A stretch of 64,000 nt of DNA from positions 2,033,659-2,097,658 of the forward strand of contig OZ316895.1 in NCBI GenBank assembly GCA_973895155.1, read 5' to 3'. This document shows positions 10,280 through 45,973 of the stretch, piece by piece (the first letter of the stretch is position 1; each line of letters starts with the position of its first letter). Source of the stretch: Marsupella aquatica (lineage: Eukaryota > Plantae > Marchantiophyta). Made by a program: the position numbers and the translations under genes. The notes beneath the pieces were generated by a model. The model was not told the origin of the DNA. It saw nothing but the letters and a program-made list of their open reading frames with translations, and did not search any database.

Positions 10280-10300
10280 CTCATTGTGTGAACTTGAGTC

Positions 10301-12457: not shown

Positions 12458-12600
12458 ATAGCCCCATGCCTGGGGTTGCACAAAAGATGTCAAGGTGAAA
12501 AAGGATGTTGAGGTGAGGAAAAAGAAGTGGAGGTGAATAAAGATGTTAAGGCAAGGAAAAGATGTTGAGAAGAGAAAAAGATATTGTTGCAAAAGTGATA
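12458..12600 (-). mobile_element. Degenerate copy of the Helitron-like 3' terminus
   Basis: atagccccatgcctggggttgcacaaaagatgtcaaggtg matches ctagccccatgccgtgcgttgcacaaaagatgttgaagtg at 47177. Confidence 0.55.
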
Positions 12601-19945: not shown

Positions 19946-21449
19946 TGTTGTGAAAGTGTTGCTATTGGGGAGAGAAAAGGTTTGTGCATGGGCACGTGCG
20001 GCGGGTGTCCATGTATGGTCACGCAATATGAGGGAGTGTTTTTATTTTATTTTTATTAATTTATTAATTTATTAATTTATTTATTAATTTATTTTTTTAT
20101 TTGTAGGTGACTGTTAATATGTATATTTAAATAATAGTCTAGATATTCAGATTTTTCCAAAATTTCCAAATTTTATTTTAATTTTCGTTTTGGGCAGATG
20201 CGAGCAGGCATTGTGACAGACATTTGAGGTGTGAGGAGAGTCTAGGCGGATCTGATGGTACCTAAAAAATCCATTTTTGATAAAGGGCTAGGATTGACTC
20301 TTTTTTTCCTTATTTTGTACCCTCATTCCATTATGACATGGTTAAGAAAAATGAGGGACATGCATCTATTTTTTGGTATGACATGATCTAAGATTCTAAT
20401 ACAATCTGACACGGGTTCTCATTTTTGTCCCACATGATTCTGCATACAAGTGTCCCCACATGCAAGGAATACACAAATGTTCCCACAAACAAGAAATCTA
20501 GATGCTCCAATTAGAAACATCCAATGGCTGAGAATCAAGTATTCACTTTTGTCCCACATGAGTGTTCACACAAGTGCTCACACATGAAAAGAATCCAGAT
20601 GGTTCAATTAGATGGATCCAATGGTTTAGAATTTATGGGATGATGTGGATTTTTCACAGAATTTTCACAATTACAAGAGTCTCTAACTAGACCCGTAACA
20701 ATGGCAAAAGGGGCAGGAGAATAATTATTTGTATACTCCATTTGATACTCCTCATCCCCGAGAGAACTCTTATATACAAGGGTTTACATTTTTATATTGA
20801 ACTAAAAATTAAGTTGGCTATAAGAAAAATTCCAATTTGAGAAAACTTTGGGTTTACACTTAAAGAAAATTTGAAGTCATATAAAAGGTTTGTTTTCTTC
20901 TTTCTTCACATAAAATTAAAAAATATTATTAAACATGTTGTAATTTTTATTCAAAGATTTTGAATTTTAAGAAAAGTCCCCCAAAGCTGGCTAGTTTGGC
21001 TGTAGACCTCTATATTAAAAACAATTCATATAATTTGGTTTTGATCAAAATTTTCCCTATGATCAAAACATGTTTAATTCTTTTTACAGTTATATCTTTG
21101 GATTCCTTCAGTTGAGAGGTACAAGATTTTAGTAGGCTAAAATGAAAAATTCTTTCACATGATCAATTGGATATAAATTCATTATAAAGAATAAAAATTG
21201 CCTTATGAAAAGGGGAGTTGCTTACCCGGGCTCCTCATCAATGTTCTTGCAAGTAGAGTTCCTTCATTTGATCTCCTCAAGGTACTTTTAAGTTCATGGT
21301 CCACTGCCATTGTCTTCTTTGTATTTATTATTTGTATTCCCCTAGTACCCCAATGTATTCCCCTTTTCATTGCCCCTCCCCACAGTATTGGCACAATTGA
21401 ATATATATTTGGATGCGATAACAAGGGAGTGCTAGTAGAAAACACTGTA

Positions 21450-22150
21450 TTTTATGACGGAAACAATGACTATTAATCAGGTCTTTTTAACAAAACAATG
21501 ACGCAATCGTTCTTGTCTTTCCAGACACGTCACAACGGACATTTTGGTCACGGTCCTTTTGGACAAATGACATTAAAAACATGTGGTCATTTCATACTAT
21601 CCTAAATGACCATTTTTATGATATGGTCATAAATGTTGAACGGTCCAAAATGACGACAAAAATCACCATCTACGGTCAATTGCCGTTGACCGTCGACGAT
21701 CCCCGTACCCAATCACACAATGACACGTGGCAATCAAAAAACAAATAACATTGGTCATTTTGGACTTGTCTAAAATGACGTACATTATATAACAAATCAA
21801 ATAGTGACACGTGGTTCAAAGAGGATTCACCATTTGGCAATATATTTGTGTCATTTTGGACGTGTCCAAAATGACTACGGTATAAACAAGTCATATTGAG
21901 ACACGTGGTTCAATTGGGAGGAGACACGTAAAGATACACATTAGTCATTAATGACATGTCTTGAATGACATAAAGTGAGTCATAGTGGACTTGTTTATGA
22001 TGACCATGAGAACGGTCATTGTATATGTCATTCTTTGAATCATTTAGTCTATGTCTTTAATGACCAGAGTTGAGTCATATTGGTCACAAAGATAGTTATG
22101 GATAATGACCATTACATCAGTCATTCTAGCCAGTCATTCAGGTGAAGTAT
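21450..22150. repeat. Left subterminal repeat region of CACTA (ATGAC/GTCAT motifs)
   Basis: Dozens of aatgac and gtcatt motifs in direct and inverted orientation. Confidence 0.85.
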
Positions 22151-22489
22151 TCAATGATTTGGAGAAATTCAAATTTAAGTGATCATGATAGATAAAACTT
22201 CATGTCAATCAAAAATCATACATTACAAAGCCATTCAATAGATTTGTTGAATGAAAACTTAAAGAAACATTCGATATATATCACAAATCCAATTGACATT
22301 CATACAAGATATTCATAAGTCTCACGGTAACTATTGAACTCAATGCAAATTTATGAAACAAAATTACATTGACATCAATAATATTAGATTGTCAATTGTT
22401 ACAACCTGACATACCAATCACTGCATGTTTATAGAAAAACAGAGTTGTCATTCTATCATGTCTATTGTTTCTTGACAGAGTGCTATTTC

Positions 22490-25400
22490 TATTGCTTCTT
22501 AAGCAATCTAGAGTTTCATAGGGCATTCATCCCTTTCACATCAGATAATTTAGACTGGTTCTCCCCTGCATTGGCAAATGGCAATGCCACATCTACAAAC
22601 ACTTCAATCACACGCACTCACAAGAAAGGGCTTTCAAAATCTGCACAATGAAACTTATCTTCTCCTGGCAGCCCTGTCACCTCACCTTCTGCCACTATCA
22701 TGGAATTGTCCACAACGCTCTTCATCTTCACCAAATCTCCTCTTGCAAACTGTGAACAACACATTTTGTTAAAAATGCAATAAACAGAAATTGAAAGATA
22801 GAAGAACACTCAAATCAAACACACATTTACCTTTGCAATGGGGTTAGGAGACTGCATTGGTTTCTTCTGTGCAAGTGATGCATTTGCTGAGGATGCTTTC
22901 TTCCTTTTCTTCTTTCCCTTTCTAGTTGATGGAGTGTCATCCTGCTCACTTGGAACAGGAGTTTCTTTTGGCAACTCAGATGATTCTGGGGTTACATCTG
23001 GTGTCAACTGAGTCGACTTATCCTCTGGCAACTGAAAGGCATCTGAAATGGCTTCTTTGGGCAACTTAGATGGCAAAAGGTTCACTTCCAATAATTCAGT
23101 TTGCTTCAGAGTACTGTTAGCTGTGTCAGTTGGTCTTCCCTGTGACACAGGAGGCTCCCCTAAAGATGCTGTCATAAAACACACACAAAAGAAATGCATA
23201 AACAAACATGTATACACCAGCAACATATAATCACACTAAAAACATGCAAGAACATTATAAACATGCAATGACATATACACATCACAATAATTACATTGAA
23301 TGGACAGTGTATACATGATAGAGAATTTTACCTTCATTATCGCCTGAAAAAGTAAGAGATCGCTTTCTACTACCTTGTTTGGTAGCTGTAGTCAACTTAC
23401 TGTGACTAGGCACAACTGTTGGAACTTGTGCATTACTGGTTTGATGTGCCATCCACGTAGTCATCATGTTTGTCAACTCCCTCACAGTGCCTTTCAACTT
23501 AGCGACATCCAATTTCACAGCCCCAATGGCAGTGATCTCTTCTTTTGAATGTGGGGTCTGTAAATGAACCACAAACCAACACAACATTCTCACTGTCAAA
23601 CTTACAAACGACACAACACTCTGTCAAATGGAGAATGATGTACAAATCAAATTGGTATGACAATACTCACAGCTGATCCATGTCTGTATCCTTGCCCCAG
23701 TAAGCTAGCACTTTTACCCTCCCCACTTGCCAATGATGGGCTCACCTTTGCTCCCACAAAACTACCAGTTTGACCTTCTGCACTTGCCAATGATGGGCTC
23801 ATTGTCACCTTTGGCAATGAACCCTGACTACCATGGTTTTCTTTCAGGTCAGATATACCTGGGCTTGATCCTCTCTTCTGCTTCTGTTCAAACACACAAT
23901 GAATGAGAATCACAGAGTATGTTTTCATGAAGATTCACAAACAAGACAGAATTGATAGTGAAAATGATAGACAATTTACCATTCTCTTTGCTGCTGCAGC
24001 ATGCCCTCCTCTTCCAAAGTGAGAGGTATCTTGCACTCGTGCTCTTTTATCAGTCATCTGTTTACTCAAAGATATCAATGCTGGACTGGTAAAATGAGAT
24101 ACCAAAGCTGCCCATTTCTTTGGATCAACACCAGATGGCCCAGGTTTGGTTGGATCCTCATTGCAAACTTTCTTCCAATAAACATGCATTTTATGGCGCT
24201 CTCTCTTCAATATGCCACGACAATGTCTCTGGAATTTGGTCTTAATAAATTCCCCACCCACATACTTCCACTCAGCTGCCATGTTATTCCACACTGTGGT
24301 TGTATGAACTTGTGGATGATCAGTCCATTTTGGCTTTGATACATCAAAGACTCTGAGTACGTTGCCACGAAGTTCCTCCAGCCAGTATTGTTTGTTGCCA
24401 TCAGAATCATCAATATCATTGTCATAAATCTGCATTTCACAGACAATGTCAATTCATAACTCTGGAATTTATGCAGAGTCCAGGTTTTATACACACAACA
24501 ACAGAGAGGATCAGATTTGTCTAAATCTACATTCAAAAAAAGTACAATACTCACTTTAATGTGTTTGGGCAAATCTCCATGATCCCTTCGTTGTTTGGCA
24601 GTATTATCAAACTGCTTCTTAGCATGCCTTCGTTCCCTGCGCATCTCAGAGGCCCTGCCTGCAATGCACACACATGCATTCAATCAAAAAATATGTACAT
24701 GATTGAAAAGTTGAGCAAATGCTCTTGCATATGCATGATGAGCAGATTGTGTATTACCTGAAGATCCTCTGGAATGTAGTACATCAGATTGACCTGATCT
24801 GCCTTCAGATGCTGATGGAACCACTAAACAAACACACAACACCAAAGCACTTCAATTAATTTCATTTCCAAGTAGAATATCAACTTCCAAACACACCTGA
24901 AAAGTAGAACAGTACAATCCACTCACTTTCATATAAGAGTCCAGTGTCTGGGTCTTTCCAACATCTCACCAGCCCACCTCCACCAGGCCCAGTCTTCTTA
25001 GGACCACGATTTTGTTTCTGTACCTACATCATGGACAAACGTAAGCATATCAACATATAATTTGAAAAAGGGACAAGGATCCCTTCCTATTAGGATGATG
25101 AAGTTCAAGCATTACCTGTTGTTCACTCTCTGGTTCTGACCCTCCAATGTCAGAGTCCTCAGTGTCATACTCAGAAGGAGAACCATAGCCATCATCACCA
25201 CACTCTGCCATGTTCACCTTGGTAACTTCTGATAGTCTAGAGCTCCTCCTCTTTGGCAATGTTTCAGTTGAAGTACCTTTCACCAAAGTAGGCTTTCCTC
25301 TCTCTCGTTGTACATGTGTGGTTGGGCCTCTAAGGAACAAAGCAATCATCAACATACACCAATGTAGATCAAACATACATGCAAAATGAATCTACAACAC

Positions 25401-25754: not shown

Positions 25755-28700
25755 TCACTGCTTAGGCCTGCCCTTTCTTGCAGATCCCTCTGCATCTCTG
25801 CCTCGTTTGGGACCAGTACTTGGTCCTGGATTTGCTCTCGACCTACAGGCCTTAGCCAATTCGATGTGTAATTTGGCATTGTTTTCCATTGTAGCATGGA
25901 AATCAACGTCTGTGTAATCACCTAACACCCTTGCGGACCTGGATTCTTTGTGGAGGATTGTTCTCCATGCTATCCCCTTCTCATTGGGGTGGAAGAAAAC
26001 CTGCTCCACTTGCTTTGGGAAAACGTAATCCATTTTCTTGGACACACCCAGTTCTCTATGGAAATTCACCTGCCAAAGACCAGACTCAGAATACCTCATA
26101 CTGGCAGAGGATTTAGGAGTCCATGATGGATCTGCCCATTTCCCTTTGAAAAGAATCACCTCTTTCCTCAAGCTACCGTAATTCAGTACTAAGATATCTG
26201 TCAAGGCCCCTACATACTGTACAGATTCTTCTCTAGTTGCGCCAGACCTGTCCACTCGCTTCTCAGTGAATGTCGAAGCCATCCCAAAATCAAAAGTGCT
26301 GAATGCACCAGAATCACAATCACTCAAACACCCCAAGGATGGAATAGTCCTCCAGTGATGCCCATAGGCTCTGCATGCCCTATACAGTCGTGCCTTCAAA
26401 CTAGGTGGTGTGGAGTATGCAGATAGTAATGACCGCTCAGACTCTGTCTCAAAATTATGGGTATTGACTAATGTTTGAAACCATTCCCTGAAAGGTGGCA
26501 GTTCTTGGCAGTCAAGGGGAAATTCCACTGGTTTTCTTCGATTGGCAGGCTTCCTCATCCATTCCTTCCGGAAATCCACTCTTTGTTTGGTAATAGTCTC
26601 ATTGGTAGCATCATATATCCTACATGGCAACAACAACACTCAAGACATTAGTGCACGATCCACAATGAATATACAAACACAATGGGGCAGCATAATTATG
26701 ATGCATATGGTACAGGGTTTACATACCTATACCATGGAGCCATTGTCTCTTCATTCTCCAATATATAATGATGCATGGCCATCATTTCAGACCAATTCAA
26801 AGTTATCTCCTTTGCAGCCCCTTCCAAGACAATGCCTGCAACGCCAGCATCCTCCTCCAACTCCCAGGTTTGTTTTCCCTCTCCCTTAGCATCAATCATG
26901 TATTCAGAAAGGAATCCCAAAGACTCATCTAATACATAGCCTTCAGCCATAGAAGCCTCTGGACGTGCCTTGTTTCATACATAACCCTTCAAAACCTTCA
27001 GGTTCCTCTCTATTGGGTACATCCATCTGCCTGTAACTGGGCCACACAAGTCTAATTCCTCCACTAGGTGAATCATTAAATGGGTCATGACATCAAAGAA
27101 GCTTGGTGGAAAATGGATTTCCACAATGCAGAGAGTGAATGCAACATCCATCATCAAATTCTCATACATTGAAGGGTCCCACACCTTCGTACAGATCTGG
27201 CGATAGATATTGCTCATCCCAGCTATGGCCAAGCAAACCCCTTCATCAAGTAATCCCATTGTTGCCAGAGGGAGAATCTGTTGCATGAGTTGGTGGAAAT
27301 CATGTGATTTCAACCCAGAGAGTTTCTTGGATTTTGTAACACACTTTGCCAAAGAACTTGAAAAACCAGTGGGCCCTTTCAAGGTCAATAACACCTCCAA
27401 GAACCTTGTTCTTTCCTTCTTGCTCAGGCAATATGGGGCTGGGGGCATCAACAATTTGTCATCCTTACGCTTGGGAGCTGGATTGGGTACAAGCCATAGG
27501 TGTTGGCGCACCTGTAAGAGCTTCAGGTCTTCTCGCACAGAAGGAGTGTCCTTGGTCCCAATGATAGTGTGCACGATGTTGTGTGCAAGATTCTTCTCAC
27601 AGTGCATGGGATCTAGACAATGGTTAATGAGTAGTTCCTGCAGTGGACACACAATTCAGAAATTAGGGCACTGAATACAACAATTACAAAATCTGGGCTA
27701 CAGGAAGTAAACACATTTCAAAGTCATATGAAGAGATTGCAGAAATTCATTGTAGTAGTATGGAGTCTTACGTTCCAATAGGGTAACTTGTACAGACTAG
27801 TAGCCCTCTTCACTCCATGCACCTTTATGGGGCAGCTCTCATCCTCAACCTTGGTTCCTCCCTTCTTCAAATATTCTGTTGTCTCGTCTCCCCACTTCTT
27901 TCTATCAGAGCTTGACATTCTACACGGTGCAGGTCGGCTCTCAATTGCACCATCAAAGTATTGTGCATTGTCTGGTCTACGAAAAAGATGCCTTGCTGCT
28001 AACCATCGACGGTGGCCACTGTACTCTAATTTCTGCAAGTGCTTAGAACCACGTGCCACACATTTTGGCCCATAGATGACACATCCTTTGTATCCAGCGT
28101 GTTGTTGTCCAGATATTAAACCATATGCAGGGTAATCATTGATTGTCCACAATAGCACAGCCCTTAGGTTGAAGTGTTGAGACAATCCTGGGCGTGGCAA
28201 TTTGTCAAAGCAGGGCACTCCTTTCGTCCACAACAGCTCCAGCTCCTCATAGAATGGGCCCAATATTATGTCCAGTTGTTCCTCTGTTACTGAATCAGGT
28301 CCTGGAATCAGCATAGCTAGCATGACAAAGAACTTCTTGGTGGTAAGCCAAGGAGGTAAATTGTAATTCAACAACAAGATTGGCCAGGTAGACCAAGCTG
28401 TGGAATTATTCCCAAAGGGATTCACCCCATCAAGTGCCAACCCAAATCGCACATTCCTTGGTTCAGCTGCAAATTTTTTATCAATATTTGTATCCACATG
28501 CTTCCAAGCCTTGGAATCTGCTGCGTGCCGAACCATGTTGTCTGTGCTTCTATTCCCATGATGCCAAGTCATGAGTTTAGATGTACCAGCAGTGGCATAC
28601 AATCTCTTCAACCTGGGAATTATAGGGAAATACCGCACCACCTTCCTTGCCTGTAATGAATTCCCCACTCTCTTCATCTTGGGCTGCTGACACACTGAAC

Positions 28701-29631
28701 AGTTTTCTAACTTGGCATTTTCACCCCTAAAGAGCATGCAACCTTTCTCACAGACAGGGATTCTCTCATAATCCAAGCCAAGCTTTCTCAATAGCTGCTT
28801 TGCAGCATATAAGTTCTTGGGCAGATTATGCTCTGCAGGCATACCATGCTCCCCCATCAAAGACAACAATGCATTCACTCCTTTGTTTGAGAATCCATGG
28901 CCATGACAGATGTTCAGCAGAAGCAACATGAATGACACAACATCTATTTTGCTGCCTGGGAACAAAGGTTGCATTGCTGCATCTAAAGATAACTGTGCAG
29001 GATCAGTCTCCACAGGAGTTTTGGAGGTTTGAAGGGGGTTTACAGGATGGGCACCTCCTTCACTCTCATCATCCCCAAGTACAAAATTCAAGTCAAAATG
29101 GTCCTGATCATCTAGCTCATGCTCAGGGGATTCTTCACTGGTTCTCAGCAACGTTTCTTCCAGTAGAGCCCTGATATGTTCTTCGACATCTATAGTTGGA
29201 TGTTCTTGAACATCCACAGTTGGATGCTCTGGAACATCTACAAATAAATGTTCTTCAACATCTACAGTTGGCTGTTGTGCATAGGTTGCCTGTTGAAGGT
29301 TTGCTACCCTCAATGCCTCAGGGCCATGTTGTGACATGTAGTCAGCACCCCACTCTTCATCAGAAGAGTCCTGTCCCTCTCCCACCCACACTCGACATGC
29401 AGGGTACCGACCATGTTTAATAAGGTGCAATCTAGCAGTATTTCGATTAGTCCTATAATTCCCTTTGCAGTTCACACAAGGGCAGTACATCTTATGGTCC
29501 CCACTCTTGTGGCAGGCCTTCTGTTCTCGAACCCACAAAGCATCATCACGATGTTGTACTCTAGCTGGATGGAAGAGCGGCAACTTTGGAGTTCTACCCA
29601 CACCTAACGTATTCTATGGCAATTGTGCCAT
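25755..29631 (-). pseudogene. CACTA transposase (TnpD/Tnp2-like), 3 exons: 29631-27772, 27637-26727, 26619-25755
   Basis: N-terminal CPCVNC motif, Transposase_21-type core (RNVRFGLALDGVNPF, WPILLLNYNLPPW, DYPAYG), DPMHCEKN, LKSHDFH, WMYPIER and RPEASMAEGY. Introns are frame-consistent GT-AG. In-frame stops: TAG at 29614-16 and TGA at 26975-77. Confidence 0.93.
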
Positions 29632-30231: not shown

Positions 30232-30891
30232 TCAAATCCAAGATATGTGGCTCCTAGCAGGAGTGCCTAGTGTAGGGTCAATGTCATGGTCAGAACAATA
30301 AAACATCCCCTTCTTGGGCTGCCCATGCGCTGAGTGATCCCAAATTGTTCGATCATGGGCAAATCCCCTCTGCTGGATAAACAGCAGGCAGTCCTTGTGC
30401 CATGCCTTAGGACACCTCATGCACTGAACCAAAAAGCCATTAGCCCCATCATTGGGCCCCTGTCCACAAGTAAGACAAATATGGAGTCCACATGATGCTC
30501 TGCCAGGAACCAAACACTGCCGACTGTAAAACCGGGCACAGAGAGAGTCTGGACATTTTCTTACCTCTTCACCAATTTTTCCAGACACATGGCACTTAAA
30601 GCAAGAATGTTCCTCATTCTTGCAATCAACACAAAGCCATTCTCCAACATGGCCATCAACGAGGGATATAGTTGGGCATAGCCATTGCTGACCCAAAGGA
30701 CAGGAAACATTCTTATGGAAATGTCGGTGGCAAGGCCCATCACAAACAATGAGATCCCCTCCCTCATCACAAATCGCACATACATGTGGACTATTCTGGT
30801 TAATCTCAATGTCTGAATATAAGGACAATTGAGGTGCTTGAGAGGATTCACCTCTGCAACGATTCATGGCCTTCTGCTTATTGCGAGCCAT
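30232..30891 (-). CDS. Stand-alone EDM2-like composite PHD finger protein (219 aa) carried inside the CACTA element
   Basis: Open intronless ORF with ATG in accATGG context, just after a tgatgtAG acceptor. Sequence VCAICDEGGDLIVCDGPCHRHFH...WLCVDC...HSCFKC...CPDSLCARFY...CGLHICLTC...CMRCPKAWHKDCL...RTIW...FYCSDHDIDPTLGTPARSHI is colinear with the EDM2 PHD region as recalled (VCAICDNGG..C.G.C.R.FH ... CRRCPKSYHRKCL ... YCQEHEIDEELLTPVRDH). Confidence 0.85.
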   Translation of the reverse strand: MARNKQKAMNRCRGESSQAPQLSLYSDIEINQNSPHVCAICDEGGDLIVCDGPCHRHFHKNVSCPLGQQWLCPTISLVDGHVGEWLCVDCKNEEHSCFKCHVSGKIGEEVRKCPDSLCARFYSRQCLVPGRASCGLHICLTCGQGPNDGANGFLVQCMRCPKAWHKDCLLFIQQRGFAHDRTIWDHSAHGQPKKGMFYCSDHDIDPTLGTPARSHISWI

Positions 30892-32189
30892 GGTCCTGCA
30901 CACTCAGACCCTACATCAGATTGTGAAACAAGCAGGAATAACAGGGTGCAGCATGACACAAAAGAATGAGGGTGCAGCATAAAATATGACATGTAACCAC
31001 AAGGGTGCAGCATAAACCAATGCTTTATAGATGGCAAAGCATTTAGGACTGAGCAGCGCAAATAACCTTGGCCTATGATTGGAAGCAATCACAAATATTG
31101 CAACCTGTATGCCTTCGCTTGCTGTACAACAGTGCTCACTCACCCTGCCTTTTTAAAATCTGTAAGGGCAACACAGAACAAATAGCAATTGAGTTTCAGC
31201 AAAGCATTCATTTGGCTCTCAAGTTTTAAAATGGACAGAGCAAACACAACAATGTGCACAACAAAGCACAGAGAGCAACAAAACTCCAGCAAACTGGGAC
31301 TCAGGCAAGAGATACGAATTTTAACAGCGAAATCAAATCAAGATTCGGACCTGTGAGTTCAACATGCAGTGCTCACTCACCCTGCCCTTTTTTAAATCTA
31401 TAAAAATCAAGTTTTATTGTGTGCCTTCTACATCTTAAGCTGCTGCACACATCTGTTACAGAACCATAATTAAGTTGCTTTACTCTCAACAAGCTGCTGG
31501 TCCACCCACTTTTTCAAAAGCTGCACCGTACTCTATCTTCGTGCACAAATGACTATACCGGGCTGCTGTCAGAGACCCTTACGAAGAATTTAAAATTGAC
31601 CAAGCTGATTTTAGTTTAGTTTCCAAAGGAAATCATGTGGCTGTATTCATGGAGTTGTATTCATTGCTGTGTATGGATGTTGTGTGAACATCAGACAGTT
31701 AGCTGAAAATTACCATAGTTGAAGAGCAAGGCTTGTACAAAATCCACTAAGGAATTCTCTGAGGTGGCACAGCAGTTGGCAAACCACACACGAAACTCTG
31801 AAACTTTTTGGTGACAAAATTCTACAGAGTCGCTGCTGGAATCAAGTGAGGATTCACCATACATGCCTGCACTTCTCTTCAGTAAAAAAAAGAGAAAAGA
31901 AAAGGGCTATGATACAGAGGGATGTCAAAAGAAGAGTAAGGAAACCAATTCATTCCTTGGTTGGTTTTTTTTATAAATTTTAATATCGTGAAAGACCCCA
32001 CGGATAGGGGGAACAACAGCCCTTAATACAGGGACAGCAACAGCACACTAGCAAGCCACAAAGAGAGCCCAAAAGCACAAAAGAGAGCATCAAAGCCCCA
32101 GGGAGAGCCCCCCCTCAAAGAAGGGAAATAACACCGATCAAGAGAGCACCCATGCCCTTCCCACAGCAGCCCCCCAAAAAGCAGATCCC

Positions 32190-35100
32190 TCAATCAGCAA
32201 CGCCGCCGCTAGAGGGCACCAAGAGAATCCTGTCCCCACCCCGTCTCAGCCAGATTTGCCTCGTTCCCCGCAACCATTCCTGAGCCCGGTTCAACCGAGA
32301 GCGACGCCGCCCAAAGCGTAAACCAGCCCCAACCGCATGGATGTGATTGGCAATCTCAGCAAGCATCAGGCCCAAGTCAAATGAACGTCCCACCTTGTCA
32401 GAGAACATATGTTCATTTCTTCCCAGCCAAATCATCCAGAGAGTCTGATATACACAAAAGATCCTAGCAGTGTGAATAGGCTCCGGTCCTATCGATGCAT
32501 CAAGAATAGCCAGCAGACCACCTCCAATGGGTAAGCGAAGCTCCGTCAAAATCCTGTCACACATCCTCCAGCAACATGAGGCATGGGAACATTCAATGAA
32601 CAAATGTTGCATCGTCTCCAAGACCCCACAGCAAAGCTTGCAATTCCCAGTACCAGCCTGGATACGGAGGGCCCGTTGACCAGTAAACAATCCACCAACC
32701 AGGATCCGCCTGGAAAAGGTTTTTGCCCTGCAGGAGAGGTCAGAAATCCACAGCTTCTTCCATCCAATGCACCATTCAATTTCCGACCGGTGTGAGGACC
32801 AGCACCTATTAAGCAGCACATGAAGGCTCATCTTGGGTCTCAAGAACTGGTAGACCCTGCAGTTGGTGATCTGAAAGTCCTTGAGAGGTTCTGCCCTGTC
32901 AGACCAGCGCCACTGTCTGGCCGGAGGATCCCTGTCCTACCTGCAGGCAGTTGACTCCCAAATTCTCCCTAGGAACGCTCTAGCCAGCCCTCTGTGCTCC
33001 CCCGTGAATCCTCGCAGCACCTGCCCCCTAAGCGGAAGGTCTTTCCAGCCCCCTGTCTCCACCGACCATCCGTCCTGAATTGATCTCATTCCCAAGCGTC
33101 CACAAATAGCAGTGACTCCTACAATGTCCACATTTGGCAATGAATTGAAATCTACCATACATCTAATTGCATCGTTAATGCTCCAGCGTCCAGGGGCACC
33201 ATATCTCCCAGGACAAAAAGCCAGATGGGCACGCAGCTCCTCCCAAGCCTTCCATAGACCACTTGTATACCTGAGACCACCGCCTGCCCTAGGAGTACAG
33301 AGCAGAAGCCTATCCTTGAATGTGTAATTGTTTCTTCTGATCACCTTGTAATTCAACCATCCCATTAAAGATAAGTTGGCTGCCAGCATCTTCGACCATT
33401 CCCTGTCTGGATACTCTAGGGCCTTAGTGAACCATTGTGATAATAATGCATTGGAGTGGCTTCTGAAGTCCTTGAATCCCAGGCCGCCCTCTATTTTTGG
33501 AAGTGTCATCTTGTCCCATGCCACCAGCGGAATTTTCTTCCCACCTGCAGGATTATATCCCCACAGAAAATCTCTACTGAGGGCAATGAGTTTCTTGGCC
33601 AGACCCGCTGAAGCCTTGAGGTGCATCACATGGTAGATTGGGATGGCCTGGAGCACGTGTTTGACCAATAAGGTTCGACCTGTGAAAGAGAGGAGCTTAT
33701 TTGTCCAGGATGACAGTCGTGAGCTGATTTTATCTAGGCAGAATCTGTGCAGTTGCTCAGTCTTCAGCCCGGCCCCCAAGGGAGCGCCCAGATATTTCTG
33801 AACCTCCCCCATTGCACTCACTTGACAACCAGAGTACAGCAGCCAATCCGGGATGACCTCAATTGCCAAGGGAATCACCACAGATTTTCGTAGGTTCAGC
33901 TTTGCTCCAGAACCCATTTCATAACATGCAAGTGCAGTTTGTGCCTGGGTGAAAGCTTCCTCCGTGGCAGGAATGAACATTCCAACATCATCTGCGAATA
34001 ATCTGTAGCATATTGTGAGTGTGTCCGTGATTGACAGTCCACTAAGTCTCCCAGCCTCCATCTCCGCAACTAAGAAGTCCATCAGCGGTTGTGTCGAGAT
34101 GACAAAAAGTAGGGGCGACAAGGGGCAGCCCTGTCTCACCCCCCTCTTAAGCTCAATCATACCCGTCGCAAAACCATTGACCATTGCCTTCGAGAAAGAT
34201 CCAGCCAACAGAGCCCGTACCAGTGTGATAAAGTGGCCACTTATTCCCAGTAAGTGCATTGTGTCCCATATGTATTCGTGATTCACCCTGTCAAAGGCCT
34301 TTTCGAAATCCAACTTCAAGAAAAGTGCCTCCGTCTTCTTGTGCTGTATCCAGTCACATGCGAGCCAGGCCAGTGAGATGTTTTCCAGAATGTGGCGCCC
34401 CTGTATAAATCCGGTCTGTTGGGGGCTGATTATCTTGTTCATGATTTCTTGTAACCGCAATGCCAGGATCTTAGCAATGACTTTGTACGTTGTGTTCAAC
34501 ATTGTAAGGGGACGCCAGTCCTTCAGTGATCTCTTATCAGGCTTCTTCGGAATGAGCTTTATTATTCCTTCTTTTAACACACTATCAATCTCTCCTGTCA
34601 TCCAGAATTCTTGTATCATTTCCACCAAGTCCTGTCCCAGAAACTCCCAGCATGCGCGCAGTACTTCTGCCGTTAAGCCGTCTGGGCCAGGCGATTTGTC
34701 TCCTGGTAGCATCCAAAGCACTTCCTTCACCTCTTTAGTTGTCGGGAGAGCTTCCAATTTCATTCTCTCTGCCGCTGTAAGCGCAAATTTTGTGTGTTGC
34801 AGTAGACGTCTCCTCTCTTGCCGTTGTTCTTGTGTCTCCCTTTGTGAGGGTTCCTGCGGTGCATAAAGTGCTTGACACATTTTCTCCACTTCAAGCACAA
34901 TGCTTGCCGCCTCTGTTATCTCCGTCCCATCCTCTTTGAGAATCAGGTTCATGGTTTCTCGGGCGCGTTTAGCCTTTACTATCGCATAGAAGAACTTTGT
35001 TGATTCGTCTCCTTCTCCCAGCCATTTAATCCTTGCAAGTCTCCGTCCCTTATTAGCCACTTCCAACTCGGTTGCATGCAGTGTGTCTTCCGTTTCCGTG

Positions 35101-36130
35101 TATTCCTTGATTTCATCCTCTGTGTGTTCCTCCAGAATGGATGCTTTCAGTGCTCTCATTCTCGCTCTAAGAAACTCCATCTCAACCTCTGCCAGCCTTG
35201 GTCTTGCTTGTAACTCCATGTATTTTTGCCTAAAATTGGAGCACGCTTTTGAAAATCGCAGCACAGGGTTTGCAAATTCCCTCCTTCCCTCCAGGCTCCT
35301 TCTGGAAGCGCCAGGTCCTCCTTGTTGCTTAGAAGCGCTGGATTGGCCATGAATAGTCTCACCTTACCTCGCTCCACCTTCTGACCTGCATCTCTGAACC
35401 TCCCTTTCAGTATCACCGGGTCATGGTCTGATAACGCTGATCCTCCTTCATGCACCAGCTCTACTCTCTCCTCTAACCACCATCCCTTCTCGCTAATGTA
35501 GAACCTATCTAATCGGGATTGTACCATTAATCCCCTTCTCATCCTTCTCCATGTGAATTGGGCACCCGTAGCGCCCCCGGTGATCTCCCACGCATCTACC
35601 AGGTCAAAGCGCGTTTTTAAGAAGCGCCAGAATTCCGCTTCTCTTCCGCCGATCAGAGGTGATCTCCCGGTTGAGTCCGCTCTTCTTTCTGTCATGTTGA
35701 AGTCGCCACAGATGATCCAGTTTACCTGCGGAAGCTCATCCTTAAGCTCGTTCTATAGCAAAGCCCTTAAGTCAGCCGAGTTTGGTGCATAGATAGATGC
35801 CACTCCATAATTGCCTCCTTCGTTCTCAATGATTATCCACACAGCTCTGCCAAGGTCCAGTTTGCCTGATGCTACCACCTTCAAAGACGGGTGGACCAGA
35901 AGTGTCGTTCCTCCCCTGCCTTCCTCTGGTGCCGATGAGAAGTGTTGATAGTTTGAGAGAATTGTTCTCAGAGCCATGTCCAAACGGAATTGATCCGTCT
36001 TCACTTCTTATAGAGCTAGGCATCCCAGCGGAAATCGCAGTGCTTGTACCCAGTTTTTGACGACATGTTTGCGGTTTGTCTCACACAGCCCACAGACATT
36101 CCATGTGGCAATCCGCATTATGTTCTCCAT
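32190..36130 (-). pseudogene. LINE ORF2 (APE endonuclease, RT, zf-RVT), disrupted
   Basis: MRIATWNVCGL, SIYAP, GDFN, SRLDRFY, SDHDPV; KSPGPDG, WRPLTMLN, KLDFEKAFDRV, GVRQGCPLSP, LFADD; C-terminal CKLC...HLFIEC and WMIWLGRN. Stops at 36008 and 32937; frameshifts near 35755 and 35300. Confidence 0.95.
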
Positions 36131-36189
36131 CCCCTCCCCCCCCGCTGCTCCCCAAGTCGAGTGGTGCACTTGGTCAGCACACCGTCACC

Positions 36190-38259
36190 CTAGATACGAT
36201 TCCGTCCTCCAGGGGATAGCATCCAGCCCTGAGAGCCGCTCCCCGTTTGCTGCTCAGTCAGTCCCCCTATCAGGGAGTAGTCGTCTCTCATCTTAGTTTG
36301 TGCTGCGCCTCTTTGTTCACTTCTCGGACTCCTCGTTTCAGGGCTGAGCAATCTGTTTGTCCTTGTTGAGCTTTCGCCCGCACCTGCATCAGACATGGAT
36401 CCTCGTGAGAAGTACAGCGAACGTTGTTTTTTTGCTTCACCCTTCGGCTTATCTTTATCTTCAGTTGGGGGGGTTCTCAATTCTTGTTTCCTGGTTCGTG
36501 CTTTGAGTTTGCTATTTGATATGTAAGCTTCATATTCTGACATCTCTGCATCGGTGTCCCCATGGTACGAGAAATTCCCTTCGGCTTCTACCTCTAAGAG
36601 CGATCCTGGAAGCCCGAGTGTGTCTGTTCTGGCCTTCGTGCTGAATTCCGGCCCAAAGCTTGGTGCACTGGCATTTAGAACAGAGCCTCTGCGGTCTGTG
36701 TTACCTCCAGGATCCCGGGCCAGTCCACTCCCAGGTGGGAAGTCTCGCGAATTCCCCTTAGTCCTAGTCGGTTCCCATCTCACCATGGCGTCCAAGGGTC
36801 CACGAGTGGGCTCCAGCAATTCCATCCCAATAGCACCCACATTCGGCCGTTGTGGGTTAGCTGGAGTTCCTTTGTCCGGTTCTCTAACATCTGTCGCAAT
36901 GATCAGCTCCACATGGGCAATTTCCTCCTCAACTGAGTTTTTCCGGATCGTGTTCGCCTGCCGCTCTTGGTTCTCCCTGAATTTAACCCGGACCATAGCA
37001 TTCTCTTGGGCCTTTTGTATCTCTTCTGGGTCAGCCTCCGAGTGTCGTTCGTCGTCTTTTTCATCAGGTATTTCCAGCACACTCGTCGGCCTCTGCCCTT
37101 CATCTCCTTCTCGACAGCTGCGGGCTAGATGCCCTTTCTTATGGCATTTGTAGCAGTGGTAAGGAATATTGCGGAAGGTCACCGGTTGCCAAATTACTAT
37201 ATCCTTCTGAATTTTCACTCGAACACTTGCCGGTATCTCCCTGTCAGTGTCCCATAGTATGCACGCACGGTCATGTGGGTAAGAACTGAATTGGTCTCCT
37301 TGAATGTAGTATAGTAGGGTGCCAAGCGCGCTTGCAATTTTCCTTCTGCATCCTTCCAGCTCCAAGGCTCTAAATGGTAGCTCAATCCATACTGGCAGTT
37401 TGGTGTAAGACTCATTTTTTATGTCAAAGGTTGGATCCCATGGGAAGGTGTATACAAATCTATTTTCCATAAACCATGGCGCCCCATTCAGTGCCAGATC
37501 CCGATGATCAGGTTCTTCAAAGATTACCATGTAAAAATTTTTCCCCACAAACTTGACTTGTAGCACCGGCCAGCGCCCTTGCCTAGTCATTTCGTCTTCT
37601 ACCCAGTCTCTGAAGGCTGGAAGCAATGGGGTTCTATCTGTGAAGTAGCATAGCAAGGCATAGTTATATAATTGCCTCACATTCATAGCTGCTTCCGTCA
37701 TGTTCCATTCAACTATGGCAAACAGCTTTTTGTCAAGGTCACCCTTAGAGCGGTGTGCTACAGCTCTCAGAATTCTGATACATTCCTCCGATGTTTCCTC
37801 CTCTTCAGCTCCTTCGCGGCCCCATGTATCAGGATTCCGGGTACCATTTGAGATTCCATAGATTCCAGGACCCTCTCCCCTGAGCTCTGCACCTCTCAGG
37901 CTACGTCGTGTCTCTCCATCCAAGGCTGGGACCTTGTCCCGAGCTGAGCCGCCGCCATTCTCATCCTCTTCCATGTCCATCAGATCGTCCTGTATCTCCC
38001 ATTGTGAGCCGGCTGAGCCCCCCCTACTCTCTCCCTGTAGGCCAGGATTGCCTCCTCCCTTTCTCTCCTGCAGTGGTCCGTCCCCATCATTCCGCGCATC
38101 TTGCGCCGAGAATTGGTTGCACCTCCCCACTCCCTCCTCTTCGAGTTTTCCTTTATTCTGAGAGGCCAAACCAACCAGATTGGTCTCGCGCCCTCTCACC
38201 CCCTGGAGCGTCCCCGTTCTAGTCTGTTCTTGTTTCAGTCGCCCACTGTAGCACCCCAC
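36190..38259 (-). CDS. LINE ORF1 (DUF4283-like region plus CCHC zinc knuckle); true start uncertain
   Basis: ALNGAPWF...FPWDPTF...LPVWIELP and CYKCHKKGHLARSC, upstream of ORF2. Confidence 0.85.
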   Translation of the reverse strand: MGCYSGRLKQEQTRTGTLQGVRGRETNLVGLASQNKGKLEEEGVGRCNQFSAQDARNDGDGPLQERKGGGNPGLQGESRGGSAGSQWEIQDDLMDMEEDENGGGSARDKVPALDGETRRSLRGAELRGEGPGIYGISNGTRNPDTWGREGAEEEETSEECIRILRAVAHRSKGDLDKKLFAIVEWNMTEAAMNVRQLYNYALLCYFTDRTPLLPAFRDWVEDEMTRQGRWPVLQVKFVGKNFYMVIFEEPDHRDLALNGAPWFMENRFVYTFPWDPTFDIKNESYTKLPVWIELPFRALELEGCRRKIASALGTLLYYIQGDQFSSYPHDRACILWDTDREIPASVRVKIQKDIVIWQPVTFRNIPYHCYKCHKKGHLARSCREGDEGQRPTSVLEIPDEKDDERHSEADPEEIQKAQENAMVRVKFRENQERQANTIRKNSVEEEIAHVELIIATDVREPDKGTPANPQRPNVGAIGMELLEPTRGPLDAMVRWEPTRTKGNSRDFPPGSGLARDPGGNTDRRGSVLNASAPSFGPEFSTKARTDTLGLPGSLLEVEAEGNFSYHGDTDAEMSEYEAYISNSKLKARTRKQELRTPPTEDKDKPKGEAKKQRSLYFSRGSMSDAGAGESSTRTNRLLSPETRSPRSEQRGAAQTKMRDDYSLIGGLTEQQTGSGSQGWMLSPGGRNRI

Positions 38260-41200
38260 CAGATCGATGCGAACCCTTGTTCCAATGTGTCTACCTTTTA
38301 ATCCCCGCCTCCAAAAGTGGCAGCGGGAAAGGTGCTCCCGCTAGACTAACGCATCGGCTCATCCGCCACCCCTGGCTCCAACTCTCATGACCGGATCTCC
38401 ACAATTGTGCTCCCGCAATCCAGACTAGTATTCCACCCTAAAACAGCAGAACCGGCTCTAAAGCGGATCCCGATCGTAGCGATGGCGAGAGAGAGCAGAA
38501 AAAGCTTCGTGCAGAAGCAGGGGTCACCCTCGTATCGATTCCACCCCTCTCGAGAAGCTTTTTGCCCCTCTCAATCTCCTTCTAGAAGGTCGAAACGCTC
38601 ATGGATGAGCACAAGTCCCTCCGCCCTTCTTCGCAAGTCCACTGTCAGTTAGCTCGTTCAGCCCCAGGAAACCAATTCATTGAGGAACATAGACAGACTA
38701 AGGAAAACATCATACAATGGAAAACTAAGGACTACATTGTAATAATAAGAGATCAAGCTCACCTTGCACCACAAAGATTGTCACGAGTCACCTCGCAGTT
38801 CCTCGCAGCTTAGGTCCAGGATGACATTTCAATATGGAGGAAAGGAGTTTACTCATTTAAAACAGAGAAGGAGTGGCATCTACAGGGACTTTGGCAGCAC
38901 ATTGAAAAGGTTGGCGATACATCAGGTTATCTTTCTAGGTTGACACTGCCAATAGAATTTTGAACACAACAAACACAACAAACACTGCCAGATATAGAAT
39001 TTTGAACACAAGGGTATGGCATCCTGATTTGCCTAACTCAATCAACTTAATAGCATATTTTTATGTTCAATTAGGCAGCACTAAATAGAACAGCCTTTCA
39101 CGCAGTCAGAATAATTGGCAATAATTGCCAGACGACAACAAGACAACAAACTGAACTGAACATAGTAGACAAATCCAACAAGTAGCAATCAGAAATTAAC
39201 AGCAGACAGACAGAGGACAACTCGGTCAGAACTCGGGCACTTGATTTAGTTGTGGTAAATAGCCGTTCAAGTTCTGGACAAGCAAGAGCAATACGTGAGC
39301 AGACTCCAGAAAAATCATCTCTTGAGATTGAGGAGAAAGGCATTCCCCAGCCAGCTTACCTATGTCTTGAAAAATGTATCGGACATCGTGGACGCTGGGG
39401 CTCAGCTGTTGGCCGCAAGGGAAGATTTTGCCAAAACAAACAATAAAGCTCGAAGATAGTTAAATTTCTTAGGTCATTCTAAATGGGGAATGAATTAGCA
39501 ATTAGAACCAGTAAACCCTGATCTTGGGCAAGCAGAGAGAGAAGACTCTGCGCCTAATACTTATGTCTACCCGAATTTTACTGGGACATATGAGCATTGG
39601 GATGGCATTGCAAAGCAGAATTTTGTAGCAGTGGAAGGAATCAACATAGATAGCAGTGGAAGGTCGCAGTGGAGCTAGCATGGGACAGGGAAGGAAATGC
39701 AGGCACTTGTGATGCAAAAGGCTATAGAGGGCGAGAAGGTGGACAACCAAACTCAGCAAACTCAAAGAACATGTAGCAAATGGCAATAGAATTGAAGATC
39801 AGAGAACCTGAGTGGGCAAAAAATTGATATAGATTGTAATGGGCAATAAAGAAGCTCAACCGGGAGACTAGCAGTAGTGGAGACAGTTCCGTCTTAAATG
39901 GAAAAGGAGAGATATATACAATAAAGAGAGACGTCCTTTAAAGTAGAAATTGTCTGAAAAGTAAGTGCAAATAAGTGCATGCAACAGGAGCGGTCACATA
40001 CAAATTGAGCAGATCCTCTCAAGGCTACAGAGGGCGAGAAGGTGGACAACCAAACTCAGCAAACTCAAAGAACAAGTAGTAAATGGCAATAGAATAGAAG
40101 ATCAGAGAACATGTAGCGAATGGAGAGGGATAGATAGAGAAAAAACATAAGCAGAGAGCTCTGGCACACAGCAACACAGGTCCCAACACAGCACATTGCA
40201 GGTCCCAGGCTGGGGTGGAGCCGGAAGTGGAGAGCACAGAGCAACCAGGCAAATCACAGCATGGGCGCCAATGGGAATAAGGTCAATACCTTTGAGGCGG
40301 AAGCTAGCAGGCCTCAACTTGCAGGTAGCAGCTTGTGCTCTGTTGCCTTCCGCAAGTAGCTTGCACTCTCAGCTTCCGCAATGAGTCGCCCTCTCCCCTT
40401 TTGCAAGCAGCTGCTCGACCTCTCCCCTTCCACAAGCAGCTTGCCTTCTCCCCGTCCGCAATCAGGTCACCTCTCCCCTTCCGCAAGCAGCTCGCACCCA
40501 CTTAAAGAAACAAATGTTGAGACCAAACAAACAACCGGCTCCCTTCCGCAAACTCCACAACCTCTTCAAGAAGCTATCGTCGACCTTCCGCAGCAAGAAT
40601 CATTTCCTCCCTGCTTTCACTGCCTCCACGAGCTTCCATAGCAATCGCCTTCCATGATGATCGGGGCCCCAGTGCGCAAATGCCTTCCGCATCCACCTTG
40701 CGCAGCTTGTTGCCGATTGTAGCTCCTCACCCACAGCTCGTGACCCGCAGCTTGTCGCTCGACTGTTTCTGATTGTGTCCGGCTCTTCCTTCTGCAGCTC
40801 TTCCCTTCCGCACCTCCAACCTCACGCAACTCCTCCCCTCCCGCAACTCCAACCTGTGCTCCTGGGGCAACTCCAACCTGTGCGCGGAAGAGTGTTGCAG
40901 CTCCTCCCCTCCCGCAACTCCACCCTGTGCTAGTCTAGCAAATGTGCTCGGAAGAGTGTCGCAGCTCCTCCCCTCCTGCAACTCCAACCTATGCTCCCGG
41001 GGCAAATGTGTTCGGAAGAGTGTCGAAGCTTGGTGGAGGCAATGCACAACGCTGCGCAACCCTAAGCCCTTGCAATGTGCACACAAGGCATGCCAAGAAA
41101 AGAGCACATCGCGCATTGCCCTCTCCGTCGATGTTTTTTCAGGAAAAAGGGCTCCTGTTGGTACGCGAGAACACTTGAGGAGGAAAAACCTAATGCTGGA

Positions 41201-41649
41201 CGCCTAAACCCCGTAAAAGTAAGGTATTTCTCCAGATGGGGATGGTGGATATTGTACGTGGGTCATGAATTAGGTTCTATTCTGACAATCTCTCATATGT
41301 CTGGACCCCCCATAAGACCCTAGGGAAGTTGAGACTAGGTTAATAACAATGTAAACCACCCCCCCCCCTCGCCCCCATAAGGCCCTAGGGAAATACCGAC
41401 TATATAGGGTAATAACAAGGTCCGGACGCCCCCATAAGGCCCTAAGTAGGGAAGGCAAGGTTAATAACTTATAATGTCGCAACCCCCCCATAAGGTCATG
41501 GCTGTTTGTGTAGGTGCCAACAAGAATGTTAAGGACCAATGTTATATATAAAAAATCATGCCCGCGATATAAAACGTCCTTTTGGACCAAGGGAAGACTA
41601 CATATGAGGCTATGTTGTCTAAGAGTTTTTGAGAGCATTACACCAAAGC

Positions 41650-44600
41650 ATTAACAAGTGAGCCTTCCCATGACTATATGACCTCCAATATGCCAACATT
41701 AATGGCTTCCAATATGACAGCATGAGTGACCCCACGTTTAGTCCTCAGATTGAAGCACCATTTAATTCACAAATGACCCAATGAACTCCCTTGTACCTCC
41801 AAAGAGAACCCCCCAATAGCCTTTGTAAAGACCACATTTCCAGTCATTTGGTACTTCTGACCTCTAGTATGACAACCAAGATTACCCTAATTTGAGGTGT
41901 TTTCATTAATGACACACCATGAGGGACCTCTCTAATGACCACATATGCAGTCAATTGCTCCAAATGACCTCCAACTGACTACCAAAATGACCCTTATTGT
42001 AGTCATTGACATTAATGACACACATTATGTGAAAATGACCCAATGAAGAGTATACTACCTCTCGGAGTGCCCCTTTACAATTCCTTTGGAATTTAATAGA
42101 ATATATCCAAAATCCAAATATCGGCACAAACATGACATAGTTATATAGAAGGACATAGTCTTCCACTAGTATTGCACTATATACCTCTTGGAGAGACAAA
42201 AACAATTTTTGTATGCATGCCTTAGGATGGTATGCATGCATGGTGACACTTTTGGCAAATCACTCCAAAGTTGTATGAATTGGGAGTGATTTCCCCAAGG
42301 TTGCATCACCCCTTAAGTAATTGCAAAAACATGGCTCCAAAGTGCTCATGGTGCAACTAGTGGTTGGAGAATAGTGGGTATAGTACCCCGCACCTTGTGG
42401 AGAGGTTGCCACCTTCATGTAGAGCCCCATGGCACACTAGGGCCACCTTAAGCTCCTAGACCCAAAAGGGTCATTTCTGATGGTCCGTAATGACACCATG
42501 AGGGACCTCTATAATGACCCCATATGGAGTCATTTGGCACAAATGACTTCCAAAAGGACTGCCAAAATGACCCTTACTGCAGTCTTTGGCATTAATGACA
42601 CACTATTCCTCCAAAATGACCCAATGAAGATTACAACACCTACGCACAATGCCCCGACACTATTCATATGCAAAATGGAGTATTCCCCATCCAAACACCG
42701 GCACAAACATGACACAATTACATCACAAGATGACAACCTTCCATTGGTGTTGCGCTACTTCTTGGAGAGACAAAAAAATGGCTCCATTTGCGCTTGGATA
42801 CGGTGGTATGCATCCATGGTGACACTTTTGGCAAATCACTCCAAAGTTGTATGACTTGGGAGTGATTTCCCCAAGGTGCATCATGCCTTAAGTAAATGCA
42901 AAAACATGTGTCCAAAGTGTTCATGGCACAACTAGTGGTTGGACGATGATGAGTATAGTGTCCCGCACCTAGTGGAGGGGGTTCTCACCTCTATGTGGGG
43001 CCCCATGGCACTCTAGGGCCCACCTCCAGCCCCTAGCCCCAAACTGGTCATTTGTGCTTCTGCTTAATGATTGCACAAGGGACCCCTCAAATGACCACAA
43101 ATCCAATCATTTGACTTATGTGACAGCCCATATGACAGATTTAATGACCGTACTTGTAGTCATTGGTATTTATGACACCAATTTTTTCAGAAATGACTCA
43201 ATGAAGATTACACTACCTTCTTGAGTGCCCCATCACTATTCATTTGCAAAATAAAATATTCCCCATCCAAACACCGGCACAAACATGACACAATTACATG
43301 GAAGGACAACAGCCTTGCACTACTTCTTGCAGAGACAAAAAAAATGGCTTCATTTCCTTTAGATAGGATGGTATGCATCAATGGTGACACTTTTGGCAAA
43401 TCACTCCAAAGTCGTACGACTTGGGAGTGATTTTCCCAAGATTATATCATCCCTTAAGTAAACACAAAAACATGGCTCCAAACTGCTAATGGTGCAACTA
43501 GTGGTTGGAGAATAGTAATTATAGTATTTGACACCTAGTGGAGGGGTTGCGAGCTCTATGTGGTGCCACATGGCACTCTAGGGCCCACCTCCAGCCCTTA
43601 GCTCCAAATTGGTCATTCATGCTTGTCTTCAATGACTGCACTAGAGACCCCTCAAATGACAACAAGTCCAGTCATTTGAATTATATGACATCCCATATGA
43701 CCAATTCAATGACCCTACTTGTGGTCATTGGCACTTATGACATGACTTTGTTAAAAAATGACCCAAAGAAGGTCCTGGTAGCGCCAGAGAGAGCCCGCTC
43801 TACATTCCTTGCAAAAATGGAATAATTGTATACCTTTAAACATCAGACACATCATAGAGGGAAGCACCACTGCCACACCCATTCCATTGGTGTTGCGCTA
43901 CCTCTTGGAGAGACAAAAAAGGGCTTCATTTGCGTTTGGAACAGTGGTATGCATCCATGGTGACACTTTTGGCAAATCACTCCAAAGTCATACGACTTGG
44001 GAGTGATTTCCCCAAAGGTGCATCATGCCTTAAGTAAACGCAAAAACATGTGTCCAAGGTGTTTATGTTGCAACTAGTGGTTGGACAATGATGAGTATAG
44101 TGTCCCGCACGCAGTGGAGGGGTTCTCACCTCTATGTGGGGCCACATGGCACTCTAGGGCCCACCTCCAGCCCCTAGCCCCAAACTGGTCATTTGTGCTT
44201 TTCCTTAATGACTGCATAAGGGACCCCTCAAATGATCACAAATCCAGTCATTAGACTGATATGACTCTCCATATGACAGTTTTAATGACCCTGCTTTTAG
44301 TCATTGATATTTATGACGGGCCATTGCTCACATATGACCCAATAAAGGCCCTAGTACCTCCAACTAAAGCCAGCTTTAGATTCCTTGCAAGATTGGAATA
44401 TTCCTCTTCCCTATATCCGCACCCACACCATACTGAGAAGCACGACTCCCCTGCCCATTCCATTGGTGCAGCACCACCTCTTGGAGAACCCAAAAACAAC
44501 TTTTATTTGCCTTTGTATGTGATGGTGTGCATGCATGGCAACACTTTTGGCAAATCACTCCAAAGTCGTACGACTTGGGAGTGATTTCCCCAAAGGTGCA

Positions 44601-45890: not shown

Positions 45891-45973
45891 CTACAATTAT
45901 GATAGGTGTCTGGAATGACTATTGAGTATTTTAATCTTCATATCTCTTGGGTTCTTTAATGACTCTATAAGTA

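Follow-up and report, generated by a model that had tools for sequence, protein, structure and literature searches.

The window, meaning the whole 64,000-nt stretch of Marsupella aquatica DNA analysed here, contains a CACTA/EnSpm transposon in which an intronless gene for a triple-PHD protein (P0001) lies beside the transposase gene (Table 1). Read along the minus strand, the element presents a repeat-rich 5' end, a putative leader, the PHD gene, TnpD, a TnpA-like gene and the 3' end. The PHD stop codon falls 600 nt upstream of the co-oriented TnpD ATG (29631), which bears out the preliminary description of an ORF located between the CACTA termini, 600 bp upstream of the transposase and on the same strand.

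Table 1. The CACTA element and its component features, with positions in the window
Feature	Position	Strand	Details
CACTA element	21430-46948		TIRs; GAG 3-bp target duplication on both flanks
Target site duplication GAG, left copy	21427..21429		3 bp
Target site duplication GAG, right copy	46949..46951		3 bp
CACTA 3' end	21430..22200		degenerate TIR 21430-21443 and subterminal ATGAC/GTCAT region
TnpA-like gene, multi-exon	22400..25400 (approximate)	-	best exon 24429-23977
TnpD transposase, three inferred exons	25755..29631: 29631-27772, 27637-26727, 26619-25755	-	identified by Pfam
EDM2/NSD-type triple-PHD gene (P0001)	30232..30891	-	intronless, 219 aa, basic M-A-R-x-K N-terminus; C123S and P200S in the window copy
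Putative spliced 5' leader	30892..31403	-	AG acceptor 5 nt before the ATG; a reading of the sequence only
Nested LINE	31939..38681	-	16-bp target duplication 31939-31954 / 38666-38681
CACTA 5' end	41600..46948		about six 577-bp repeats, seven 83-bp repeats, dense ATGAC/GTCAT, TIR 46935-46948

The element and its surroundings

The right terminus of the element is an exact CACTAGAAGAAAAC at 46948 on the minus strand. The left terminus, at 21430, is degenerate, with 11 of 14 bases matching and TTTATGAC in register, and the two ends agree at 18 of 31 bases when aligned in register. By itself the left 14-mer is unremarkable (12 matches at three or fewer mismatches, with 8.45 expected), and this end was therefore accepted on the GAG target duplication together with a sharp onset of the ATGAC/GTCAT motif, which occurs 26 times in the 771 nt inside versus 48 times in the 21,429 nt outside. 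The motif is found 33 times in 1049 nt near the other terminus and 41 times in 19,401 nt of internal sequence. With inverted repeats at its termini, a 3-bp duplication, subterminal motifs at both ends and a TnpD gene, the element belongs to the CACTA/EnSpm group.

The TnpD product matches Transposase_21 (E 8e-64), Transpos_assoc, DUF4218 and DUF4216 in Pfam. The TnpA-like gene has no Pfam match; its ESM Atlas matches (0.92-0.96) are to unnamed streptophyte clusters and serve as a lead only, six of the 30 coming from a set whose best cluster carries Transposase_24 on 32% of its members. In the putative leader, two duplicated mini-exons of 16-17 nt with GTGAGT donors lie at about 31383 and 31146, and we infer that the PHD gene is expressed from this spliced 5' leader of the element. 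The leader region is interrupted, upstream of the PHD ORF, by a near-complete LINE of 6.7 kb, absent from the preliminary description, with an ORF1 (DUF4283/zf-CCHC), an endonuclease, a reverse transcriptase and a zf-RVT domain. One contig from sequencing run X3 joins 31954 directly to the sequence at 38682 and thus represents the empty site; after subtraction of the LINE, the CACTA element measures about 18.8 kb.

The 5' subterminal region is swollen (41600-46600), and each of its approximately six 577-bp repeats has an internal palindrome, in addition to the seven 83-bp repeats. AAGATG-rich arrays, 17-bp and 19-bp, flank the element at 19206-19420 and 47056-47600 and share a 38-nt match in inverted orientation; further 19-bp arrays of a similar kind are located at 580-970 and 12480-12590. 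The CACTA element may be nested in an older repeat element. Elsewhere in the window there are a Copia-type LTR retrotransposon (4247-10599) with 94% identical LTRs (4247-4542, 10312-10599) and a pol broken by stops, a degenerate palindrome of about 570 nt (1399-1965), one end of which resembles 19674-19800, and two host genes on the plus strand, one sterol-desaturase-like (49536-51271, Pfam FA_hydroxylase) and one phospholipase-D-like (59622-62673). A perfect 117-bp tandem duplication at 63148-63383 is either very recent or an assembly artefact. Rfam returned no matches in the 64-kb window.

The triple-PHD gene and its relatives

The PHD gene runs on the minus strand from its own ATG (30891) to a TGA (30232) without internal stops, confirming the open frame of 219 aa described initially; the plus-strand frame of the same interval is interrupted by stops. 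Among 1638 frames of the window, it is the only clade-like ORF. Three NSD/EDM2-type PHD models follow one another in order, namely PHD-1st_NSD at residues 36-60 (27.2 bits, the Pfam cut-off being 27 bits), PHD_NSD at residues 94-127 (E 6e-8) and PHDvar_NSD at residues 139-169 (E 3e-7), and the last zinc ligand is a His, as in a composite PHD module. The top PDB sequence matches are PHD1-3 of NSD3 (E 1.7e-10) and of NSD2 (E 2e-7), and a quinoa EDM2-like protein is 29% identical across residues 26-216, a span that takes in the C-terminal YC.H.I..LGTP.R.HI stretch. The assignment to the EDM2-type composite PHD is thus upheld, with NSD PHDs rather than unrelated PHD proteins as the best matches. 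A structure predicted from 16 aligned sequences has a mean pLDDT of 72.5, with residues 1-24 and 207-219 below 50 (an earlier fold from four sequences was poor, with a pLDDT of 39). Among solved folds it comes nearest to NSD PHD-C5HCH and PZP H3 readers, at middling scores (Foldseek E ~1e-4; Z at most 6.6), and neither the sequence nor the fold search returned an EDM2 entry among the solved-structure matches.

P0001 shares with Arabidopsis EDM2 and plant EDM2-like proteins the two-and-a-half atypical PHD module, the terminal His and the LGTP.R.HI tail. Unlike these proteins, it consists of the module alone, without acidic stretches and without any of the features that define an EDM2 orthologue (the N-terminal RFD, the ELP methyltransferase-like domain and the Pro-rich tail); it is intronless, resides in a transposon and belongs to a separate clade. 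A His-to-Cys exchange at a PHD2 zinc ligand is a further difference: Cys is present in 17 of 19 scorable clade members, whereas 122 of the 123 host-type proteins that could be scored have His. Ahead of the first Cys of PHD1, the Asp-rich stretch found in all 12 host proteins compared is replaced by Q-x-[SA]-[PA]-[HQ] in all eight clade members compared. Identity amounts to 32-35% with liverwort EDM2-type proteins and does not exceed 35% with any host EDM2-type protein in the comparison, which did not include Marsupella's own EDM2.

Protein searches retrieved about 25 stand-alone relatives of P0001 at 31-82% identity, a set that leaves out three near-duplicates (P0157, P0158 and P0186). A motif test divided the 25 into 14 complete and 11 partial modules; proteins of the complete type span 187-278 aa, and intronless complete ORFs with matching ends are found across 40-80% identity. 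The trees, which are without a true root and have long branches, were built on a subset of 150 listed hits and place 18 of the relatives. In a quick tree of 71 rows, 14 clade rows lie on one side of a branch with an SH-aLRT of 100. A careful tree of 45 rows groups 12 clade rows at 100/99, with a stem length near 1.1 changes per column, and leaves the host EDM2-type proteins outside, so that the stand-alone proteins placed in the trees form a separate clade.

The best BLAST scores to P0001 among these host proteins belong to short EDM2-like paralogues of liverworts (Marchantia MARPO_0005s0286, Calypogeia, Riccia), at 33-35% identity, and a tree in which the clade is joined with this paralogue is not rejected (AU p=0.177). 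The paralogue resembles P0001 in its C-terminal module, some copies ending within a few residues of it, and differs in its length of 600-770 aa, its N-terminal region and the retained His ligand. The preliminary description had seen a clean boundary in the stop at the end of the module. The stop is indeed there; as an argument it is weakened, because the liverwort host paralogue has it too and the stop position in P0001 may be inherited.

Related short proteins also occur outside the studied clade. The second EDM2-like paralogue of liverworts (P0013, P0014, P0016, P0021, P0049) terminates with the PHD module or close to it and has no ELP domain. Grasses (Eleusine, Triticeae, Miscanthus) have short PHD-only EDM2 derivatives (P0088, P0093, P0114, P0125, P0161, P0026, P0037, P0121, P0164), several of which begin MAR[KMR]K or MARR; they could be independent mobile captures.

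A distant stand-alone member was recovered as a locus (L001:754-1429) by a degenerate DNA pattern in a metagenome scan, on a contig of 1495 nt. It is intronless, begins MARPK and has a frameshift near 1080. Its flanks, 750 nt upstream and 65 nt downstream of the PHD gene, contain no transposase. The scan for related loci gave 74 pattern matches, none of which was confirmed, and the degenerate DNA pattern that yielded L001 had no hits in prokaryote genomes or viral contigs. Transposon linkage is established for the close family only, L001 being the sole distant locus retrieved. The distant clade might accordingly be viewed as a lineage-specific host gene family, of which only the CACTA family of the window captured and keeps one member; the missing transposon context of L001, with none known for the other distant members, fits this view. 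We nevertheless consider it quite improbable, given that 11 of the 25 members are partial and L001 carries a frameshift, which would be expected of mobile copies in decay (incomplete proteins can also arise from short contigs and prokaryote-style gene calls), and that among the 16 clade clusters looked up besides P0001 none has an accession from a named genome, whereas the EDM2-type genes of Marchantia, Riccia, Calypogeia and Selaginella do.

Sister copies and selection

The region was found in seven of 11 listed sequencing runs, from five studies, and three runs contain at least half of its words; no RNA run was among those listed as containing it. The contigs of six of the 11 runs were compared with the window. 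In run X6, where single contigs cover each part, depth is 298 over TnpD, 277 over the spacer and 233-256 over the PHD ORF, and goes down to 1-11 over non-coding 31336-32000; the corresponding values in X5 are 26-33 (TnpD), 22 (spacer) and 17-26 (PHD). X3 and X2 have many contigs over both the PHD ORF and the transposase, and X1 has the entire PHD ORF in a single 1204-nt contig at a depth of 701, with six differences from the window. A short contig on the PHD ORF in X7, a run with a small share of the region, is uninformative. A more diverged subfamily is also seen (X1 record 2, X3 record 11). In three organisms, therefore, the PHD ORF and the transposase are tiled at similar depth, where depth is not to be equated with copy number. 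Among the contigs listed, none spans the PHD ORF to the TnpD ATG in one piece, so the linkage in sister copies is deduced from overlapping tiles. The ORF is not confined to the window copy, a restriction that the preliminary description had named as counting against its proposal.

Substitutions were counted from the majority letters of the run contigs. The comparison of X1 with X6, based on 17 sites, gives seven nonsynonymous and 10 synonymous changes (dN/dS 0.18; binomial p 0.0008, or 0.002-0.006 with transition weighting), and no Cys or His is changed. X1 and X5 differ by five nonsynonymous and nine synonymous changes (dN/dS 0.14), a comparison that is not independent of the former since X5 and X6 are close relatives; these two differ by two nonsynonymous and three synonymous changes (p 0.07). 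A CpG artefact behind the low ratios was considered and rejected, as none of the 10 synonymous changes between X1 and X6 is a CpG transition. Between organisms, the ratio is thus well removed from the value near 1 that would have spoken against a maintained gene.

The window copy itself departs from this pattern. Its six differences from the dominant X1 contig, four nonsynonymous and two synonymous (p 0.37), fall at positions at which the window is also unlike X5 and X6, and the private changes include C123S, by which a zinc-ligand Cys is lost, and P200S. TnpD has two premature stops (29616-29614 and 26977-26975; the dominant X6 contig has six gap letters over the first), and the window copy of the element is probably dead. 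The preliminary description had reported stops in both the TnpD-like and the TnpA-like genes and had contrasted the open PHD frame with them. The TnpD stops are real; those of the TnpA-like gene are unconfirmed, because its exons are partly mapped and many stops may fall in introns. The contrast itself carries no evidential weight, since at the TnpD stop rate a frame of 219 codons would stay open by chance with P=0.70.

Capture of host fragments by Pack-CACTA elements is documented (in the part of PMC13317346 cited here), and the four nonsynonymous and two synonymous changes private to the window would be compatible with neutral cargo that has no function for the element. This explanation is disfavoured and we regard it as very improbable in view of the purifying selection between organisms, the intronless complete ORFs with matching ends across a wide identity range, the low identity to the host proteins compared and the flanks of the PHD ORF, in which neither a target duplication nor an inverted repeat was found (the best direct match, of 10 nt, is by estimate about what chance provides). 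Pack-CACTA cargo would be a recent, near-identical host fragment, evolving neutrally in a non-autonomous element; the PHD ORF is at most 35% identical to the host proteins compared, lies in an element that has a transposase gene and shows a dN/dS of 0.18 between organisms. Taken together, the parity of depth, the dN/dS of 0.14-0.18, the deep stand-alone clade and the identity of at most 35% to host EDM2-type proteins suggest that the PHD ORF is very probably a maintained element gene, the third of the element, rather than a fresh Pack-CACTA fragment, in agreement with the initial proposal.

Possible roles in the element

EDM2, whose likeness to NSD1 has been noted (PMC3776765), binds H3K9me2 and other marks through its PHDs (PMC7472560), and ASI1-AIPP1-EDM2 (AAE) promotes full-length Pol II transcripts through intronic heterochromatin (PMC7472560, PMC7529245, PMC10241880), as stated in the sections cited from these papers. 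According to the cited part of a recent preprint, Spm elements switched on by TnpA retain H3K9 methylation (10.64898/2026.08.24.746577), which would give an element a reason to carry a helper on the histone side. The PHD protein is likely to bind chromatin. The reading that we favour, with a probability of roughly 45%, is that it acts as a chromatin-binding anti-silencing helper; the role of EDM2 at heterochromatin and the H3K9 methylation kept on active Spm are what place it ahead of the other readings. The protein would bind histone H3 tails on silenced chromatin and keep the element transcribable, either by helping full-length spliced TnpD/TnpA transcripts through H3K9-methylated chromatin, as host EDM2 does for its targets, or by shielding the marks from host readers.

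Several features limit a direct transfer from EDM2. As PHD1 has no acidic patch of the host EDM2 kind, specificity for H3K9me2 cannot be assumed and the preferred mark may differ. Acidic residues before the first Cys of a PHD finger have a role in H3K4 reading. Having none of the other EDM2 domains, P0001 may not recruit AIPP1 or ASI1. Moreover, PHD1-3 of NSD2 also serves protein-protein binding, as described in the cited part of PMC12870971, which counts against a simple transfer of EDM2's function.

A maintained gene could alternatively steer integration, its product anchoring the TnpA/TnpD complex on chromatin that bears a favoured histone mark. Chromodomains target chromovirus integration, and the PHD gene and TnpD run in the same direction and may have a leader in common. 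PHD domains are also known from the DNA transposons Rehavkus (PMC6446971) and Ginger1 (Ginger1-9, PMC2836005), in animals; according to the sections cited, these are single PHD fingers fused to transposases and not a stand-alone EDM2/NSD triple module. The protein of the window, by comparison, is a separate ORF in which hardly any residues beyond the module would be available for contact with a transposase. A search of longer proteins for a transposase-PHD fusion yielded only EDM2 (one match among 1252 candidates, which is weak evidence), and no transposase Pfam family was present in the 26 longer or selected hits scanned. Integration steering is rather unlikely.

The N-terminus of the protein, which the preliminary description did not mention, is a further point of interest. 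The motif M[AT]RxK is present in nine of the 21 clade members having at least 20 residues before PHD1, in eight of them at residue 1, compared with three of 135 host-type representatives and four of 2262 ATG sites of the window. Except for the pair P0001/P0002, the nine carriers are only 34-63% identical to each other. The first five residues of P0002 are identical to the start of the histone H3 tail. The corresponding Fisher p of 4e-7 is purely descriptive, because the motif was noticed post hoc and the members share ancestry. Such a tail might mimic the free H3 N-terminus and make the protein a decoy that titrates H3K4/H3K9 readers or writers or competes with EDM2. The enrichment in the clade despite low identity points in this direction, as does the nature of the three host-type carriers, which are likewise short stand-alone proteins made up of PHDs only and include two named from Eleusine. 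Yet the motif is missing in 12 of the 21 members, its position 3 varies among carriers (T, N, P, E, C), four of the nine carriers are absent from the trees and MAR likewise opens ten long host-type proteins, the named ones being from liverworts and Selaginella. Furthermore, the motif would be equally well accounted for by a nuclear localisation signal or by a basic tail that binds DNA. A decoy is on balance unlikely.

Within the favoured anti-silencing reading, the H3-like N-terminus might, speculatively, act as a self-ligand of the protein or lure host readers and writers of H3. An old plant CACTA lineage would then have domesticated an EDM2-type reader as a two-part anti-silencer composed of an H3 N-tail mimic and a triple-PHD module, a scenario to which we assign little probability. 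If true, it would represent a transposon-borne histone mimic directed against plant heterochromatin, of a kind not found in the full-text literature search. Viral histone mimics are known (cited part of PMC11738798).

Transposon-encoded accessories that act on chromatin state have been described, among them VANC of the Mutator-like VANDAL elements and KIU (PMC13317346) and TnpA of Spm (10.64898/2026.08.24.746577). In the portions of these sources cited, VANC and TnpA recognise DNA motifs and cause DNA hypomethylation, in contrast to P0001, a putative histone reader of host origin, which the element encodes in addition to a TnpA-like gene and which is known from sequence. In fungi, CACTA-group elements (EnSpm, Plavaka and KDZ transposons) carry TET/JBP genes as extra ORFs (cited part of PMC12730594); these too encode chromatin-related proteins, but they are DNA-acting enzymes of fungi as opposed to a non-catalytic putative reader in a plant. 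In the full-text literature searches, no CACTA-borne PHD or EDM2 gene and no transposon histone mimic was found, which agrees with the preliminary description; supplementary data or Repbase may hold such an element. The word 'PHD' does not occur in the main text of PMC13547354, PMC13317346, PMC12730594 or the Spm preprint (10.64898/2026.08.24.746577), and the cited part of this preprint, in which 962 Spm proteins from Repbase are surveyed structurally, reports various accessory domains without naming PHD.

The known plant counter-silencers, VANC and TnpA, act through DNA motifs and DNA demethylation. How Spm-like elements get long spliced transcripts through H3K9-methylated chromatin is a question on which the PHD gene may bear. 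A conserved, element-borne EDM2-type reader would be a small, single-exon candidate for the histone side of this conflict, or for mark-guided integration. In addition, the P0001 family isolates the PHD module of EDM2 as a natural minimal protein for structural and binding work.
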